Virus record (IMG/VR): IMGVR_UViG_3300044691_000349
Coordinates: 1 to 62,468 of that record
Length of the DNA stretch: 62,468 nt
Strand: one strand, 5' to 3'
Source of the DNA: a virus
Taxonomy: Duplodnaviria; Caudoviricetes
Below are positions 44,587 to 51,470 of the stretch, in pieces; the stretch's first letter is position 1, and each line of letters starts with the position of its first letter. A program made the position numbers and the translations under genes. The notes beneath the pieces are model-generated. The model worked only from the letters and a program-made list of their open reading frames with translations. It was not told the origin of the DNA and did no database searches.

Positions 44587-44783
44587 TAGGCCGCCTCTTT
44601 CTGTGCTGCCATTTTCTTGGCCATCTTCAGCCGGCGCGAGTGGTAGGGTCGGGGGAGCACGTAAGGACGCTCATTGGTCCAGCGGATGGTATGGCACGCC
44701 ATCCCCACTGGCGCATGGCAGTCGCCGCAGTACGATGTCCGCGCCGTGATCTCCTCGGGCGTCAGTTCGATCGGTTTGCTCAC
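44586..44783 (-). CDS. Small zinc-finger protein
   Basis: CGDCHAPVGMAC..YHSRR; GTGA coupling. Confidence 0.6.
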   Translation of the reverse strand: MSKPIELTPEEITARTSYCGDCHAPVGMACHTIRWTNERPYVLPRPYHSRRLKMAKKMAAQKEAA

Positions 44784-46615
44784 GCGGGCACCTCCTGCGA
44801 TGGTGTATTCACGCTCAGGGCCACGGCTATGGGCTGTACCCAAATCGGCTGAGCAGAAAGTGCGAAGGATTCACCCGACCACGCCAGGAGCAAGGTCTGC
44901 CCCATCAGATCAGCGATAGCCTGCGCAGCGGCGGCCGGAACAGCATTGCCGATGCGCTCACGCTTGGCGCCATCGACATCTCCGTCCAAGTCGAAGATGT
45001 CGTCGGGATCAATCAGGGATTGCAATGCTGCGAGTTCTAGGGTGGTGAAGGGACGGTGCCAAGTTCCGTCGATCGAGCGGATGATTGCGACCAGCTTGTG
45101 ACTCGCCTCGGGCAGAACCTCTATTCGAGGATCAGCGACATTCCACCGGCCGTTGTCATGACAAGCGGCAGCAGAAACCGCACCTGAAGTAGAATCCCAT
45201 CCCATGACGCCATAGTGCCCATTGGTCAGATAGGCATCGCCCTTCTCGCGCTCATTCCTGATGCGCGGATCCGCGACCGAGAGAAGTCCCGACTGGACGT
45301 GCTGCCCGCCTGTCACGGTCTGCGATGTGTCGCGCCAACCGATAACCTTCAGCTTGTTCAGGTAGGAATTTGAGCCGTAGCTAGGCACGCGCGGATCGGC
45401 GATGCACAGAGCTCCGCTCCCGATACGATCCGCACCGGTCACCGTCTTCGAGAATCCATCCCAAGGCTGCACGGAGTACTTGCCGTCATGCTCACCCTGC
45501 GAGTTTGGCCATCGAGGATCGGCGACATTGAGGCCACCGGCTGATGGGCCGGTTCCTCCGGACACTGCCTGGCTAGTCTCATTCCAGCGTATGACGCGAT
45601 AGATGTTGTTGTAGCGATCGCCGTTCTTCCCCAAGAGCCGCGGATCAGCCACCGAGAAAGCTCCGCGCGTTGGCGCAGCCATGCCTGTTACCGTTCCGCT
45701 GGTTTCATCCCACCTGCGAACTCCCAGCGTATCGCCGTACCATCCTTCAGGGGCCAGCGCATACTCCGCCAGCTTTCCATCCACTACCTTCAGTTTCTTC
45801 AGCGATCTCCAGTCAGAACCAGCCTCCACGAAAGCAAGCCTGACCCAAGTCTTCCACTGCAGATTCGGGAGCGCATGCATCGGGCCGCCGCGCATGTCGC
45901 CCGGCATCGGAAACTTTTCGAGAATCTCGCCAACGGCCCGGAGCGAACGCTTCGGAGGCTCATACAAGAACGGCTGCACCTTCACGGCATGCCGCGCGAC
46001 CATAAGGAAACGCTTGCGCGATTGAGCCAGGCCACCGATCTCGCCGCAATCATGGAACGTCTCCGCTACCGCGTAACCGTAATGGCGAAGGAGTGCTCCA
46101 ATCTGGTCCAGCAGCGCCCGACCGCGCGTGGCGATGCGTGGCACATTCTCAAAGATGATGAGCTCCGGTGGGTCATCCGCCCACGCCTCCAGCATGAGCC
46201 ACATGCCGCGCAATGTAAGTCGGTTGAGAGCCTGATACTTGCCGGTCTTGCTCCGCGCCTCCGAAAGCAGCCCAGAGAAGCCCTTGCATGGTGCCGATAG
46301 AAACACAATGTGTGGCCGCTCGTTACCGGCCGCGGCGCGAATGTCCTCTGGCGTAGCCTCACGCCAATCGGGGCGAGGCTCGGAACCATGGAACGCGACA
46401 TATTGCTCGCGGTCGAACATATCGAGCACGGTGCCCTTTGTCCCGGAGAGTCGTTCGAAGTCGCGGATAGCTGGTTCCGATACGTCGATTCCTCCGATGC
46501 ATCGGAAGCGCGCGCGGAGATTGTTGACTTCAGCGCGACCGCGATTGAATCCAAGTGCGCCTCCTCCCAACCCAGCGAAAAAATGAAAGTGCCGTATTTC
46601 CCGCTCTTCAATCAC
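44780..46615 (-). CDS. C5-cytosine DNA methyltransferase with ADPR repeats
   Basis: FAGLGGG, APCKGFS, FENV, QSRKR, IGNAVP. Confidence 0.92.
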   Translation of the reverse strand: MIEEREIRHFHFFAGLGGGALGFNRGRAEVNNLRARFRCIGGIDVSEPAIRDFERLSGTKGTVLDMFDREQYVAFHGSEPRPDWREATPEDIRAAAGNERPHIVFLSAPCKGFSGLLSEARSKTGKYQALNRLTLRGMWLMLEAWADDPPELIIFENVPRIATRGRALLDQIGALLRHYGYAVAETFHDCGEIGGLAQSRKRFLMVARHAVKVQPFLYEPPKRSLRAVGEILEKFPMPGDMRGGPMHALPNLQWKTWVRLAFVEAGSDWRSLKKLKVVDGKLAEYALAPEGWYGDTLGVRRWDETSGTVTGMAAPTRGAFSVADPRLLGKNGDRYNNIYRVIRWNETSQAVSGGTGPSAGGLNVADPRWPNSQGEHDGKYSVQPWDGFSKTVTGADRIGSGALCIADPRVPSYGSNSYLNKLKVIGWRDTSQTVTGGQHVQSGLLSVADPRIRNEREKGDAYLTNGHYGVMGWDSTSGAVSAAACHDNGRWNVADPRIEVLPEASHKLVAIIRSIDGTWHRPFTTLELAALQSLIDPDDIFDLDGDVDGAKRERIGNAVPAAAAQAIADLMGQTLLLAWSGESFALSAQPIWVQPIAVALSVNTPSQEVPA

Positions 46616-49600
46616 GCAACCACCGCCATATCTTCCGACTCTTCCAAGATGTCGAACAGCGTAGGCATAGCCATCTTGTCTTCCATTGCCTTCGCGTATC
46701 CGCATCCGTCGAGGAAGTAGCGATGGTTCAACTCTGTCGCGATCGCCTTCCTGCCGAGCTTCAATGCGCGGTATGCTGTCGTCATCAACCCGCCAAATGG
46801 ATCGAAGACTGTCTCGCCAGGCATCGTGAATTGCTCGATCGCGCGATCAGCAATATCGAACTGCATGGGGCATATGTGGAGTTCTTTGCCCTTGGCATGC
46901 TGGGCGCCGTTCAGCGTCAACATCCGCGTAACATCGCTCCACACGTCAGGGTGCCAACTGGGAGGCTGCAGGAGCATGAAGGTCACCGGAAGAATCCGCT
47001 TCGCCTCCAGCGCCTCTCCGATCTTGACGTGGTGCTCATAGTCGTAGATGTGGGTCAGGTTGTAGTCGCGAAATAGCTTGAAGATGGCCTGATGATCCAG
47101 GTTATCCAACTCGTCCGGAGTTAGGAGGCGGTTGCCTGAGCTGCGGGCGAAGCCGTGAGCATCCGTCTGCCAGCGGGCTCGCGAGTATTTTGCCTTGCTC
47201 TTCACCACCGGGTTGTCCGCATAGCTATTTGAGTTCTCGGTGGGAGGTTTGCGGAACAGGAGGAGATACTCGGGCATCCCGACACCCATCTTGGTTCCGT
47301 CCTTGCATTGCTCGGTCCAGCCCAGCCGGTAGGTCTGATTGTTCTCCCGCACCACATCCGTCACGATGGTCTTCATTCCCATATACGCGAAGCCGTGGCG
47401 GATGAAGTGCTCCGTCACTTTCATATGGAACGGATAAGTAGTCTGGAAGCCGAGGCCTGTCATCCCTCCCGGGACAATCCGGTCCTTGACGTGGATAGCA
47501 GCGATGCGCCCTGGCTGGAGTACTCGCAGCAGCTCGGGCGTCAGGAAGTCCATCTGCTCAAAGAAGTGCTCGTTATCGTCGGTATGGCCGAAATCGTTAT
47601 AACTCGGGGTGTACTCGTATTGGGTGCTGAAGGGTATGGACGTTAGAACCATGTCGATACTGCCAGCCGGCAGGTTCAGCGCCTCCTCTACGGCGTCGTT
47701 GTTGATGCAGCGGTAGTTCTCGCCTGACACTTCAATCCGTTCCACGCCCATGCTGCGGATCAGCTCCTGCATCTTCTCGGCGTGGTCCAGCCCGTACTCC
47801 CGGATAATCTCGCTCATCTTTTGCACCGTCTCCTCGTACTGGGCCCACTTTGTCTGGAGGTTGCGCAGGACCTCGCGCTCACTCTCGGCGTAGATCACGT
47901 CGATGATCACCGGATGCTCCTGTAGAAACCGGTGGCAGCGGTGGATTGCCTGAATGAACTCAGAGAATTTGAAGCCTATTCCTGAAAAGATCACCCGGTG
48001 GCACTGCTGCAGGTTTACTCCGGAGCCGTACATGACAGGCTTGCTCAGGAATACTGTGGTCTCTCGGTTTCGCCATTGCTCAATCCGTTCTTCGCGATCC
48101 TCGATGTCCATGCTGCCGTCGAGTGATGAAAAGGTTATTCCGGAGTTGCCAAATAGCCTTTCAAGTTCACGCTGTTCTGCATTGAGGTCGCACCAGACGA
48201 CGATCTGCTCAGATATGCAATCGCCGCCCGCAATGTTTTCGGGTTGTCCCGAAACATTCCTAGACCGGAGTTGCACCCGCGACACAGCAGTCCTCGAACC
48301 TTCCCTGTCGCATGATCGTGATCCACGCGGAAATTTCCCTTCGCGTCTTTCGTTGCGTTTGGAGATTTGCAGATCGCGCAGCAGTTGTGTTGGCTTATGA
48401 GCATCTTCTGAAAGCACTGGGGTGTCAGACCGTAACCCTGTAGTTTGCGCCTCCTGGTCTGCCCCCGCGCCCGAGCCTTGTTCTCCATATACCACTCGCG
48501 AGATCGTGCTTTCCTCTTGTCGCGGTTGAGTGCGCAGTCTTTCAGAGCCAACTCCCGAGCACGCCCCGGATTGTTCTCGCTCCACTGTGCGTAACGGATA
48601 CGAGTCGCCTCTTTGTTTTTCTGGTAATTGGCTTTGTTCCGGACGCTCTGTGCAGAAATCAACCTCTCCCTGTTTCTCTCGTAATAGTCTTTCTGATACT
48701 GACGTCTCTTCTCGTCCACGAAATATGACCTCCAAAACCTTTGCGTTACGCACGCCGAGCGTGTCGCGCTTCTCCCGCGAGGCCTCGACAACGCCGCTCA
48801 CGCTGCCCCGGAATATCGTCCCCTGACCATTGGTCTCCACTGGTGAGTTTGTATGGTCCACCGCTACTTCGTGGTACCGGACCTCCATCGGAGGCAGGTC
48901 GTAACCTTCGTCCGAGAATCCAAGGTCCGAGGGCTTCTGTAGGAAGATCGCCCACGATGAGACCCACAGCCAGAACTCTCTCTCCTTGTGCGGATGGATC
49001 GTGAGCGTGTCGGCCTTGGTCGCATCACGCTTGAAGAATCGAGTCTTCGCCTGGCCGACATCCATGATCCCGAGGAAGGCTGCATAGGCCAGCAGTTCGA
49101 TATGGTCATTCGGGTCAGGAATCGCAGTCGCGACAAACTTGTACTGCACCCGCTCGTACAACCGCATGAACTCGCGGAAGGTCTTCGATCCACCGAAGCC
49201 GCGCAGCACGCTTGCCTCGTCCAGGCTGCAGACTACGAACTCACCCGGATCGAGCTTGCCATCGCGCACGGTCTCGAAGTTCGTCAGGTAGATGCCGGTC
49301 TCGGCCGCTTCCTCGATCCGACGGATGAACTTGATCTCAATCCCAAGCTTCGCTGCATCGCGCATAAACTCGACGCGCACACCGAGCGGCGCCGTGATGA
49401 GTCCGCGGCCGCCAGTTCGCTTCAGAATGAGCCGGAGGATCTCCAACTGCATCATCGACTTTCCAAGGCCGAACTTCGCAAATAGAGCCCGGCACCCGCC
49501 AGCGACGCCCCACTGCGCTAACACCTTCTGGTGGGGCTTCAGGATTGGGTTGATTTCATCGAGATCGATCGCGAATCCCCGATCAGGAGTAACCACCGCC

Positions 49601-49641
49601 TTGCGCTTGAGGAACCCCCGGTACCGCTCGAGTTTCGTCAT
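46612..49641 (-). CDS. SNF2-like helicase fused to N4/N6 DNA methyltransferase
   Basis: FGLGKS, LDEAS, ATAIP, SGVNLQ, QAIHRCHR; TSIPF, HICP, FDPFGG. Confidence 0.9.
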   Translation of the reverse strand: MTKLERYRGFLKRKAVVTPDRGFAIDLDEINPILKPHQKVLAQWGVAGGCRALFAKFGLGKSMMQLEILRLILKRTGGRGLITAPLGVRVEFMRDAAKLGIEIKFIRRIEEAAETGIYLTNFETVRDGKLDPGEFVVCSLDEASVLRGFGGSKTFREFMRLYERVQYKFVATAIPDPNDHIELLAYAAFLGIMDVGQAKTRFFKRDATKADTLTIHPHKEREFWLWVSSWAIFLQKPSDLGFSDEGYDLPPMEVRYHEVAVDHTNSPVETNGQGTIFRGSVSGVVEASREKRDTLGVRNAKVLEVIFRGREETSVSERLLREKQGEVDFCTERPEQSQLPEKQRGDSYPLRTVEREQSGACSGVGSERLRTQPRQEESTISRVVYGEQGSGAGADQEAQTTGLRSDTPVLSEDAHKPTQLLRDLQISKRNERREGKFPRGSRSCDREGSRTAVSRVQLRSRNVSGQPENIAGGDCISEQIVVWCDLNAEQRELERLFGNSGITFSSLDGSMDIEDREERIEQWRNRETTVFLSKPVMYGSGVNLQQCHRVIFSGIGFKFSEFIQAIHRCHRFLQEHPVIIDVIYAESEREVLRNLQTKWAQYEETVQKMSEIIREYGLDHAEKMQELIRSMGVERIEVSGENYRCINNDAVEEALNLPAGSIDMVLTSIPFSTQYEYTPSYNDFGHTDDNEHFFEQMDFLTPELLRVLQPGRIAAIHVKDRIVPGGMTGLGFQTTYPFHMKVTEHFIRHGFAYMGMKTIVTDVVRENNQTYRLGWTEQCKDGTKMGVGMPEYLLLFRKPPTENSNSYADNPVVKSKAKYSRARWQTDAHGFARSSGNRLLTPDELDNLDHQAIFKLFRDYNLTHIYDYEHHVKIGEALEAKRILPVTFMLLQPPSWHPDVWSDVTRMLTLNGAQHAKGKELHICPMQFDIADRAIEQFTMPGETVFDPFGGLMTTAYRALKLGRKAIATELNHRYFLDGCGYAKAMEDKMAMPTLFDILEESEDMAVVA
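48135..48719 (-). CDS. Endonuclease VII-type HNH homing endonuclease nested out of frame
   Basis: RBS GGAGGT 8 nt before GTG; CAIC..VDHDHATGKVRGLLCRGCNSGLG.FRDN..L..AIAYL. Confidence 0.88.
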   Translation of the reverse strand: MDEKRRQYQKDYYERNRERLISAQSVRNKANYQKNKEATRIRYAQWSENNPGRARELALKDCALNRDKRKARSREWYMENKARARGQTRRRKLQGYGLTPQCFQKMLISQHNCCAICKSPNATKDAKGNFRVDHDHATGKVRGLLCRGCNSGLGMFRDNPKTLRAAIAYLSRSSSGATSMQNSVNLKGYLATPE

Positions 49642-49814
49642 TGCACAACCTCGACAATCCCCATGACGACGGCCTTGAGCGTGATGTTGTCGGGGTGGAT
49701 CTCCCCGAGCCCGCGCTTGCGGTTCCAGCGGAAATTCTGACCGTCCCATGCGACTCGATGCGCATACCAGTCGCCCAGAGCGAAGTAGATGACGAGACCA
49801 GGCCTGGAGATCAT
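49638..49814 (-). CDS. Small hypothetical protein (58 aa, MISRPGLV...; not in ORF track)
   Basis: ATGA overlaps at both ends. Confidence 0.55.
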   Translation of the reverse strand: MISRPGLVIYFALGDWYAHRVAWDGQNFRWNRKRGLGEIHPDNITLKAVVMGIVEVVQ

Positions 49815-50998
49815 TCAGTCACCGCCGGGAACTCGTGATGCTCTACGCCGTCGAGAAGGTGGCCTGCGGCCTTGGTGCCGACGCGATACAGGTCCGGCTC
49901 GTCGTAGCGATGCCCCTCATCATTCGATAGCGTTTCAAGGCCAATCAACCACTCATCGTTGAACCAAATGGCCGTCTGGACCGAACCTGTGATCCTCTCC
50001 ACGTTCTCCCCAGTGGTCCACTCTCCCCACTGTTTGAAAAAATACGGAACGCTGGCGGCCTTACACTGGTCCCGCAGCGACCGTGCCCAGTCCGGATGCA
50101 TCGGTCGCGCACCATGCCCGCTCTCCCCGCCACAGATGACCCAATGAAGCAGACGCTTCATCCAGTACACGTAATCGTCCGGTTCATCCTTCGGACCAAT
50201 CGCACCGGTCTCGCCCCGCCACTGGAAGTAGGGAACGTCAGGCCGGGGCACTTTGAATAGATCAACCGGCCCGAGCAAAGGCTCCGCGCTGATGAACCGC
50301 ACCGCCGCCGGCGTCTGCAGCAGCAGCGGGATGCGCTCATCCGCTGTCTTCTGGTTCTCCACCGACACGCCCAGGTGAAGGTTCGGCAGAGGCCACTTCG
50401 ATAAGTCAGCAGCGTACCATTCGCCACTCCGGCACGGCACGCCGCCGTTCACTCGATCGTCGACGAATCGAAACTTTCCGCGTCCGCCAAAAACCTCCCA
50501 AAGATCGCCACCGCCGGGCGTCATCGAGAAGTATCCGGGTGCCAACGGTTGCCCATTCAAGACGCATGCCTTCGCCACGCGCGCTTCAACATCCGCCGCG
50601 CTCAGATACGCAAGCATCCGCTCCGGCCGTTTCGTCAGCACCTGAAACGTATGCTGCGGGCACAGCGCCACCACCGCGAAGATCTTGTCGCGCATCTCAT
50701 CCGTGACATTTTCGTGGAAAAGGTCGCTCATCGAGTTGACGAAGATTCGGAGCGATCCCTTCCACTTGAGCGGATCGAGCAGATGCGCCTCGACGAACTT
50801 GATTTGGCCGTTCCACTTGCCGGTCGACTTGCCGTTCGCGTCGAGCTGCACCAACCCCTCGTACGCCAGGCCGGGACCGCTGAACCGGTGCGCCACGCTC
50901 TCCGCGTAGCAGTGACGGCACCCTTCGCTCACCCGCGAGCAGCCGCGAATCGGATTCCACGTCGCATTTGTCCAACTAATGCCCGTCTCGCGTCCCAC
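49811..50998 (-). CDS. DUF5131 / Gp37-Gp68 family protein
   Basis: ISWT.ATWNP..GC..VS.GC.HCYA, FVNSMSDLFH, LTKRP, SAEPLL, GGESG, FFKQWG. Confidence 0.9.
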   Translation of the reverse strand: MGRETGISWTNATWNPIRGCSRVSEGCRHCYAESVAHRFSGPGLAYEGLVQLDANGKSTGKWNGQIKFVEAHLLDPLKWKGSLRIFVNSMSDLFHENVTDEMRDKIFAVVALCPQHTFQVLTKRPERMLAYLSAADVEARVAKACVLNGQPLAPGYFSMTPGGGDLWEVFGGRGKFRFVDDRVNGGVPCRSGEWYAADLSKWPLPNLHLGVSVENQKTADERIPLLLQTPAAVRFISAEPLLGPVDLFKVPRPDVPYFQWRGETGAIGPKDEPDDYVYWMKRLLHWVICGGESGHGARPMHPDWARSLRDQCKAASVPYFFKQWGEWTTGENVERITGSVQTAIWFNDEWLIGLETLSNDEGHRYDEPDLYRVGTKAAGHLLDGVEHHEFPAVTE

Positions 50999-51423
50999 TA
51001 TGCAGCCTCCTGTTTCGCCCGGACCAACGACTCGCAAATGGCGATCATCCGCAGCGCCTGCTCTTCATCAAAGAAGCCAGGCTGGCAATCCCCTACGCTG
51101 ATGCCCATCTGGGAGGCCAGCCATCGCGTCGCCACTTCCCGAGCCTTCTGCTGCGTCCAGCCCTGATATTCCATACCCGCGTGAACCATCTCGCCGAAGA
51201 TAGAGTTCGCCCTCCCCCTCAGCCTGCGCAGAGGAGCCTTCGCCAGCCGGCCCATCGGCTTGTTCTTCGGCGAGCCGCGATACACCGGCACCCACGCGGC
51301 GCACGGGGCACATCGCCACACCTTTCCCCCGCGGGAGTTGCCGTAGACCTCGCGGTCATCGGCTAGCTTGGCTTCAGCGTTGCAGTAGGGGCATACGGGG
51401 AGGGGAAGATCGGTCTTGCTCAT
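50998..51423 (-). CDS. Zinc-finger protein (DUF3268-like)
   Basis: CPYC..W.C.PC.AWV..PMGRLA..LR..R..WLA. Confidence 0.8.
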   Translation of the reverse strand: MSKTDLPLPVCPYCNAEAKLADDREVYGNSRGGKVWRCAPCAAWVPVYRGSPKNKPMGRLAKAPLRRLRGRANSIFGEMVHAGMEYQGWTQQKAREVATRWLASQMGISVGDCQPGFFDEEQALRMIAICESLVRAKQEAA

Positions 51424-51470
51424 GGCGGAACACCTCAACAGCCGGTAATGGCAGGAAGGAAAAGGTGGGG

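Follow-up and report, generated by a model that had tools for sequence, protein, structure and literature searches.

A Putative Homing Endonuclease Gene Nested Out of Frame in an Open Helicase-Methylase Gene of a Soil Phage, with Probable Read-Through in Place of Splicing

Introduction

How can a nuclease gene lodge within a conserved phage gene and leave it open from end to end, when neither an intron nor an intein is apparent? This question is raised by IMG/VR virus record IMGVR_UViG_3300044691_000349 (Duplodnaviria; Caudoviricetes), which was analyzed over its full length of 62,468 bases, hereafter referred to as the window. The window is a complete virus record with direct terminal repeats, and its DNA is present in soil metagenome runs; the sequencing runs listed for it include no RNA run. 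On its minus strand, an uninterrupted gene coding for a fusion of a presumably SNF2-like helicase and an N6/N4 DNA methylase contains, on the same strand and in another frame, a gene coding for an endonuclease VII-type protein.

Homing endonuclease genes residing in important genes were previously thought to survive only by means of self-splicing introns, inteins or intergenic sites. A third route, by which the nuclease gene is translated through as a harmless loop of the host protein, was proposed in 2025 from a few mycobacteriophage genes, without statistics or experiments (Arsenault, Gosselin and Gogarten, Genes 2025; PMC11855218). The comparative analysis presented here makes it probable that the nuclease gene of the window has taken the same route: read-through dual coding would stand in place of splicing, the insert would be kept as a loop between the two helicase lobes, and the element would spread in the manner of homing endonuclease genes.

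A Nuclease Gene Nested in the Helicase-Methylase Gene

The host open reading frame (ORF) runs without interruption over 46612..49749 on the minus strand (1045 amino acids [aa] from its first ATG), and the recorded gene call, P0121 (46612..49641, minus), starts at the ATG at 49641 and codes for the 1009-aa fusion protein. On the same strand, the ORF list places a nested ORF at 48135..48791 (minus) in the +1 frame, i.e., one base downstream of the host frame. This ORF contains the putative homing endonuclease gene itself (48135..48719, minus), a gene of the endonuclease VII (beta-beta-alpha-Me) type with 194 codons that starts with GTG at 48719 and stops at 48135. A Shine-Dalgarno-like GGAGGT (48728..48733, minus) is located 8 nucleotides (nt) before the GTG and is partly made up of the host codons TTG GAG GTC (Leu-Glu-Val); two related loci described below, L084 and L086, also carry GGAGG or GAGG 7-8 nt ahead of the nuclease start. 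At the other end of the gene, the conserved host exon IVVWCDLNAEQ..., read in the +1 frame, provides the final ~22 nuclease codons (48138-48203) and the nuclease stop codon as well.

The nested ORF matches the Pfam family Endonuclease_7 (PF02945) with an E-value of 1.1e-21 and 77 bits for a cut-off of 23.6 (79.8 bits in the genome search), and a profile built from the window nuclease and its 15 closest relatives matches Hpy99I, a restriction enzyme of the beta-beta-alpha-Me type (8e-13), and T4 endonuclease VII (2e-10) in the PDB. In its AlphaFold2 (AF2) model, which has a mean predicted local distance difference test score (pLDDT) of 85, five confident helices (residues 3-95) precede a small strand-strand-helix core, and the tail (residues 175-194) scores below 50. 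The columns CxxC...DHxH...CxxCN are invariant in the alignment of the closest nucleases and intact in all six nested copies; we take these residues to act in zinc binding and catalysis. The converse reading, according to which the host-frame peptide is a real domain and the nuclease frame is spurious, is ruled out by the Pfam E-value, the hundreds of free-standing homologues of the nuclease and the pLDDT of its model.

A preliminary description of the window, made from the letters and their ORFs, had reported a 194-aa endonuclease VII-type ORF preceded by GGAGGT and starting with GTG, on the same strand inside a 1009-aa ORF, together with a host frame free of stops between two helicase lobes and a lack of intein ends or of an obvious intron. 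The first observation is borne out by the ORF list, the sequence and the Pfam match, and the other two hold in the comparisons that follow.

An Insert at the Linker Between the Helicase Lobes

Alignment with homologues delimits, in the host protein, a helicase N lobe (host exon 1) whose last residues are ...RNAKVLE (48732..49641, minus; residues 1-310, AF2 pLDDT mostly 80-95), followed beyond the insert by the start of the helicase C lobe (Pfam Helicase_C; 47926..48210, minus) and by the N6/N4 DNA methylase domain (46714..47658, minus; PF01555, E=1.4e-14). In the numbering of the 1045-aa ORF, the Helicase_C and N6_N4_Mtase matches cover residues 514-608 and 698-1012, respectively. The Pfam family SNF2-rel_dom has no match in the window host protein at E<=0.01 and scores above its cut-off in the relatives P0137, P0159 and L084; homologues of the host protein carry the SNF2 name from their depositors.

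Aligned with helicase/methylase genes of Pseudanabaena phage Pan5, Pseudomonas phage vB_Pae_CF63a and Arthrobacter phage Gorpy (56-62% identity), the window protein has ~165 extra residues between '...RNAKVLE' and 'IVVWCDLNAEQ...', i.e., in the linker between the two helicase lobes. The corresponding insert (48208..48731, minus) measures ~520 nt, a net multiple of 3; its +1 frame codes for the nuclease, and its host frame, which has no stop, reads as a hydrophilic peptide. The alignment to insert-free homologues, a check proposed in the preliminary description, maps its junctions to 'AKVLE' and 'IVVWCDL', with boundaries good to ~10 nt. Phage records matching the host protein number 311, and all 30 of those listed match it in two or three pieces with the insert omitted. 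The nuclease starts ~13 nt past the 5′ junction, no more than three codons separate the end of its conserved part ('AYL') from the 3′ junction, and its stop lies in the host exon beyond; the nuclease ORF therefore fills the insert.

The distance between the two anchors that flank the linker is 237 aa in the window, 201-259 aa across the insert rows and 67-80 aa in insert-free proteins. The exception is P0139, in which a distance of 168 aa results from an in-frame insert of another kind: ~95 aa (residues ~340-440) placed at the same inter-lobe linker, with a weak match to FtsK_gamma (winged-helix; E 1.5e-4, below the Pfam cut-off). Because of this insert, the linker appears to be permissive and to accept ordinary domain insertions too, and it may offer a permissive site for engineered insertions in this class of helicase-methylases.

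Contigs of three soil DNA runs were compared with the window. One of these runs is its probable source, and a contig of another joins position 48211 to position 48761, with 549 nt (3 x 183) skipped. This contig might represent a relative's allele that lacks the insert, and it was not counted as such because only 27 letters lie on its shorter side and the intervening letters were unread.

Stop Avoidance in the Host Frame

Over 48100-48800, the minus strand has no stop in the host frame and nine in the third frame; across the nuclease gene itself, the counts are zero and eight. Chance openness in GC-rich DNA was considered and is ruled out by these 8-9 third-frame stops and by a GC content of only 0.52-0.59 in the nuclease region. 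Given the +1 arrangement, a host-frame stop arises if, and only if, a T-ending nuclease codon is followed by one that begins with AA, AG or GA. The next codon starts in this way at 62 of the 194 codon junctions, and T-ending codons (17%) precede none of them.

Two null models were applied to the whole nuclease gene. When its codons are resampled from the codon usage of the window, 9.7 host-frame stops are obtained on average and none of 20000 sequences is stop-free; when its synonymous codons are shuffled within the gene, the mean is 9.3 stops and a single sequence in 20000 is stop-free. The shuffle test was run on five loci with 20000 synonymous shuffles per locus, namely the insert core of the window and the related loci L046, L084, L085 and L086 (the sixth locus, L164, stands outside the shuffle set). 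The host-frame stops expected from the shuffles are 8.87 for the window, 2.87 for L046, 9.29 for L084, 4.10 for L085 and 9.43 for L086, and the observed number is zero in all five. Stop-free shuffles are absent for the window, L084 and L086, and amount to 655 for L046 and 89 for L085. The third frame matches its null in the same shuffles.

A natural control is provided by 161 related endonuclease VII loci read in the equivalent frame, which contains on average 8.5 stops per 100 codons. Among the 48 control loci with a match of at least 120 codons, zero stops are found only in the four that are nested in a helicase-methylase gene, the other 44 having 2-36. The avoidance of host-frame stops is statistically solid and exceeds chance, and it points to selection on the synonymous sites of the nuclease gene as the force that would keep the host frame open.

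Stop-free second frames over short ORFs are encountered elsewhere in the control set, at L144 over 114 codons, at L052 over 115 codons and at L006 over an 82-codon match, and no helicase flanks were found at L144 and L052. The 114-codon endonuclease VII ORF of the former (L144:2170-2511) has a stop-free +2 frame, and a second, partial nuclease match lies just upstream in another frame (L144:2039-2146); this locus may represent a further nuclease copy, nested or frameshifted, within some other host gene.

Recurrence at a Single Site

The closest nuclease proteins in a large protein index share 40-53% identity with the window nuclease. Thirteen of the 15 closest end in '...YL(T/S)RSSSGATS...', and because this tail is the +1-frame reading of the host residues 'IVVWCDL', these 13 nucleases occupy the insertion site seen in the window, in host genes of one family. 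A viral scan with the single nuclease protein as query returned no matches, and alignment-based scans of viral, metagenome and genome contigs returned 177 nuclease loci. Five of the latter have the helicase-methylase on both sides of the nuclease: L046, L084, L085, L086 and L164, the last being on a contig binned with a Caulobacter genome. The architecture is the same in all five, with the host parts in one frame, the nuclease in the +1 frame, no host-frame stop and many third-frame stops. Across the six DNA loci that include the window, pairwise identity is 33-59% for the nuclease proteins, 24-36% for the host-frame peptides and 49-65% for the host flanks, and wherever a locus covers the entire host gene, the full-length host ORF measures 999-1009 aa.

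Further copies were recognized at the protein level. A full HMMER search with the host protein against 1.84 billion representatives yielded 150 listed hits, 34 of which were examined, and seven of these (P0122, P0125, P0127, P0137, P0140, P0145, and P0159) have an insert of 130-185 residues at the linker within a single uninterrupted protein. The host-frame 'shadow' of the nuclease motif is recognizable in all seven. The survey of relatives for stop avoidance that the preliminary description had called for thereby covers 13 insert-bearing cases (the window, five DNA loci and seven proteins), and the host frame is open in every one of them.

Distribution and Signs of Mobility

The phylogeny of the host protein was inferred from 41 sequences and 833 columns with the insert columns trimmed; the sequences comprise 31 representatives chosen from the stronger of the 150 listed hits, the six insert loci and four cultured-phage genes. 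On this tree, the 13 insert rows need 10 state changes, at least 8 of which are forced by well-supported branches. Shuffled labels need 11.2 changes on average, and 127 of 500 shuffles are as low as the observed 10; the insert is scattered on the host tree, and its clustering is no better than that of random labels.

Trees of separate parts of the protein leave out P0143 and partial sequences below length thresholds. The N-lobe tree (39 rows) requires 12 changes, and the tree of the part beyond the 120-residue flank, i.e., the rest of the C lobe and most of the methylase (36 rows), requires 9 changes for 9 insert rows. The tree of the 120-residue flank that immediately follows the insert (40 rows) gathers all 13 insert rows in one clade of 19 with a support of 99, and 6 changes are needed, a value reached in 1 of 500 shuffles. 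In a sliding comparison along the protein, the excess similarity among insert rows peaks just past the insert, at +0.10 to +0.13; it is raised solely between the insert and about residue 550 and lies between -0.02 and +0.05 elsewhere. Every insert-bearing allele has a C lobe that starts with 'W(C/A)DLNxEQ...GIxxSS', even where its nearest overall relative is of the 'WHDLExER' type, and in the window it is the first ~70-90 residues of the C lobe that represent this insert-linked allele type. At the DNA level, 'TGGTGCGACCT(C/G)AA' just past the junction is common to the insert alleles and to the insert-free alleles of Gorpy and Pacc40.

The flank linkage may mean that the nuclease recognizes this type of allele, or that homing co-converts the downstream flank, and both accounts fit the data. 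The selfish, mobile nature attributed to the nuclease in the preliminary description agrees with the scatter of the insert and with its link to the flank on the downstream side. A distribution close to random on the host tree and a sharply bounded linkage together offer a concrete picture of how such an element may move. A bolder version of this picture, which we put forward as a tentative possibility, is that the nuclease gene and the first 70-90 codons of the C lobe travel as one cassette, homing overwriting the 'WHDLExER' segment of a recipient with the 'WCDLNxEQ...GIxxSS' segment of the donor. A nuclease equipped with neither intron nor intein might then drive module swapping in an enzyme, and stop avoidance might be an evolved substitute for splicing, kept in at least 13 lineages.

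A Read-Through Explanation and Its Alternatives

From the computed geometry of the locus, the insertion, the stop avoidance, the recurrence, the absence of known splicing signatures, the scatter and the flank linkage, we infer read-through translation, tolerance of a loop, nuclease activity, internal initiation and homing. A homing-type endonuclease gene, coding for an endonuclease VII/beta-beta-alpha-Me core behind ~95 residues of helical repeats, would have inserted at the linker between the helicase lobes, on the same strand and in the +1 frame. Selection on the synonymous sites of the nuclease would remove combinations of a T-ending codon with AA, AG or GA, and because host-frame stops would thereby be kept out, ribosomes starting at the host ATG would read straight through the insert. 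The helicase-methylase would be produced at full length, and at its permissive linker it would carry ~165 additional residues as a hydrophilic, disordered loop. In the AF2 model of the 1009-aa host protein, based on a 24-row alignment, residues 311-474 (48220-48711) have a pLDDT of 25-36 and no secondary structure, between confident lobes; the host-frame peptide is strongly hydrophilic (Kyte-Doolittle mean -0.7 to -1.4), matches no Pfam family at E<=0.1 and has no relative except itself among the indexed proteins. The nuclease would be made by internal initiation at its own GGAGGT-GTG. Insert-free alleles would be cut and then repaired from an insert-bearing copy, and homing would either carry 70-90 downstream codons along or require that allele type as its target.

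Several points weigh against this explanation. Foldseek ranks T4 endonuclease VII and Hpy99I first, yet weakly (E 0.09-0.13), and because these matches are weak, the family assignment of the nuclease rests on sequence profiles. The promoter scan found no sigma-70-like promoter near the nuclease start; the terminator scan found one terminator-like site, on the opposite strand. The low pLDDT of the inserted residues is not proof of disorder, and in hydropathy the host-frame peptide does not differ from the translation of the third frame, so that there is no sign of selection on the composition of the loop beyond stop avoidance. Taken alone, L046 (655/20000) and L085 (89/20000) give moderate support in the shuffles. 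The 15 closest nucleases are separate gene calls on short contigs, some of which may lie in broken host frames, and the rows of the host tree are chosen representatives and not a census. Finally, splicing by an unknown ribozyme, processing of the protein or instability of the loop-bearing protein may also occur.

Removal of the insert at the RNA or protein level would be the conventional alternative. The insert could be an intron that carries the nuclease ORF and splices itself out, either of a type not yet described or a strongly reduced group I intron, in which case the open host frame would be irrelevant or would serve another purpose; nuclease ORFs of the HNH kind are indeed common in phage group I introns, a matter also discussed in PMC11855218 (section 3.5). 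Rfam, however, gives no family at E<=10 in window positions 47500-49500, and in four related loci the host-gene region has none at E<=1, the sole row being RybB, outside the host gene in L084. A group I intron core (P3-P9) would have to fit in the ~13 nt that separate the 5′ junction from the nuclease ORF, with nothing left behind this ORF, which runs past the 3′ junction, so that there is no room for a ribozyme core. Moreover, splicing would not select for a stop-free host frame, yet all 13 frames are open where 3-9 stops are expected. We regard an intron as very unlikely. An intein, i.e., a host-frame peptide that splices itself out after translation, would likewise need an open host frame, and in tblastn the window nuclease also matches intein-bearing terminase genes (H38-H41). 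Against it, no Hint/intein Pfam family is found in 10 insert-bearing host-frame proteins (E<=0.1), a search that, like that of Rfam, covers known families only, and the nuclease ORF occupies the whole insert without flanking splicing blocks. The host-frame peptides are only 24-36% identical, the inserts begin variably with V, L, F, I and others, the residue that follows them is I, V or Q and not Cys, Ser or Thr, and AF2 predicts no fold within the insert. The intein alternative appears extremely improbable to us.

Other alternatives keep the insert and assign it a different meaning. The nuclease could have been domesticated as a partner of the helicase-methylase, for example as an anti-defence or restriction-like nuclease module, with nesting merely ensuring the co-expression of both. 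Its motifs are intact in all six loci at 33-59% identity, which points to long-term purifying selection, and combinations of helicase, methylase and nuclease are common in restriction systems; the scatter of the insert on the host tree and its linkage to the adjacent flank alone are nevertheless the pattern of a mobile element, and most homologues lack the insert, including all 30 listed cultured-phage rows (of 311). Domestication thus seems unlikely. As for translation, ribosomes could bypass the insert or frameshift around it, and recoding of this kind is known from phages, where it rescues genes into which mobile nuclease genes have intruded (T4 gene 60); bypass, however, would work without an open frame, and the junction is not followed by a stop at which take-off could be triggered. 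The host gene could also be dead and its open frame due to chance, against which stand the shuffles, the 13 open frames out of 13, host flanks that are 49-65% identical and full-length ORFs of 999-1009 aa. Both bypass and a dead gene appear extremely unlikely to us. The preliminary description had left the choice between a loop and translational bypass; dual coding with a loop is favored by stop avoidance at six of six loci, seven more uninterrupted proteins, the absence of known intron or intein signatures and an insert predicted to be unstructured, and bypass is disfavored since it would need no open frame.

Relation to Known Systems

The seg and mob genes of T4 are free-standing phage homing endonuclease genes, and the nrdA gene of Aeh1, split by mobE, is a case of 'genes in pieces.' These systems resemble the window nuclease by their own translation signals, by the absence of intron and intein and by the targeting of a conserved phage gene. 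They lie between genes or split their host into two ORFs, whereas the host ORF of the window is continuous, which dual coding would explain.

The ShiLan domain is a segment inserted into the mycobacteriophage DNA methylase gp65; it leaves the host frame free of stops, and neither an intron nor an intein can be detected in it. A different frame of the segment codes, from a GTG start, for an HNH endonuclease of 195 aa. The authors of its description propose that the insert is retained as a loop, their outlook stating that retention in the host protein is not shown experimentally (PMC11855218). In both cases, a nuclease gene of ~195 codons uses a different frame of the host strand and has its GTG shortly after the insert begins, and both share an open host frame, no intron or intein detected, a predicted loop and a disjunct distribution suggesting homing. 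Several differences are also apparent. The host gene of ShiLan belongs to another methylase family. Its nuclease, known here from the published description, is an HNH enzyme with zinc fingers, whereas that of the window belongs to Pfam Endonuclease_7 and has helical repeats; it lies in the third frame with its stop inside the insert, whereas the window nuclease lies in the +1 frame with its stop in the host exon. No ribosome-binding site is reported there, whereas GGAGGT precedes the window nuclease.

The host gene family of the window also includes gp60 of Pacc40, whose product is 56% identical to the window's host protein across the two lobes; this gene has a hidden out-of-frame nuclease ORF in an open host frame, as described in section 3.6 of the same article (PMC11855218). 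It differs from the window locus in that its insert is located in the N lobe after 'PSDI,' ~240 residues in, with an empty inter-lobe linker, and in that its hidden ORF measures 160 aa, lies in the +2 frame and has no tblastn match to the window nuclease at E<=1e-3. More broadly, the helicase-methylase family is a hotspot for mobile insertions at several sites. The hidden ORF of Pacc40 gp60 (L181:5102-9127) follows 'PSDI' in the N lobe, and similar host-frame inserts are present in P0130 and P0136. Inserts judged by eye to be intein-like affect the N lobe of P0129 and P0155, the methylase 'SIPF' motif of P0123, P0131 and P0147, and the stretch before 'CPLQFD' in P0142, P0158 and Pacc40, in the last case within the methylase domain.

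Nucleases of the same family as that of the window, with 30% identity to it, are also nested out of frame in an open host frame within the terminase inteins of Gordonia phages (H38-H41). In these, the nuclease resides inside a splicing intein that removes the read-through peptide, whereas the window insert has no intein domain and is filled by the ORF. An out-of-frame nuclease is likewise reported in a cyanobacterial dnaX intein (10.64898/2026.09.14.751524).

The principle of a hidden out-of-frame nuclease in an open host frame was thus already published in 2025, and the window is a well-supported new example, not a new principle. In the full-text literature, preprint supplements excluded, no published description was found of a nested endonuclease VII-type gene that occupies this helicase linker independently of any intein. 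What the window locus contributes is a second nuclease family, a second site within the host gene family of Pacc40 gp60, a clear ribosome-binding site and a complete soil-phage genome; together with its relatives, the element also adds quantitative evidence of selection for an open host frame in many diverged copies.

Neighboring Genes

The gene at window positions 44780-46705 (minus) codes for a 641-aa C5 cytosine methylase whose Pfam DNA_methylase match is split in two stretches, between which lie ~5 repeats of a module with a '(V/I)ADPR' end. This layout presumably resembles that of multispecific phage methylases. At 49811-51037 (minus), a 408-aa DUF5131 (Gp37/Gp68) protein matches its Pfam profile of 243 positions from end to end and therefore has ~150 extra residues; no obvious nuclease-like nested ORF appears there in the ORF list. 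The gene at 50998-51438 (minus) codes for a small zinc-finger protein that matches DUF3268 (E 8e-20) and, weakly, the Lar restriction-alleviation family. Because this DUF3268/Lar-like gene adjoins two DNA methylase genes, the surrounding stretch of the genome may handle host restriction.

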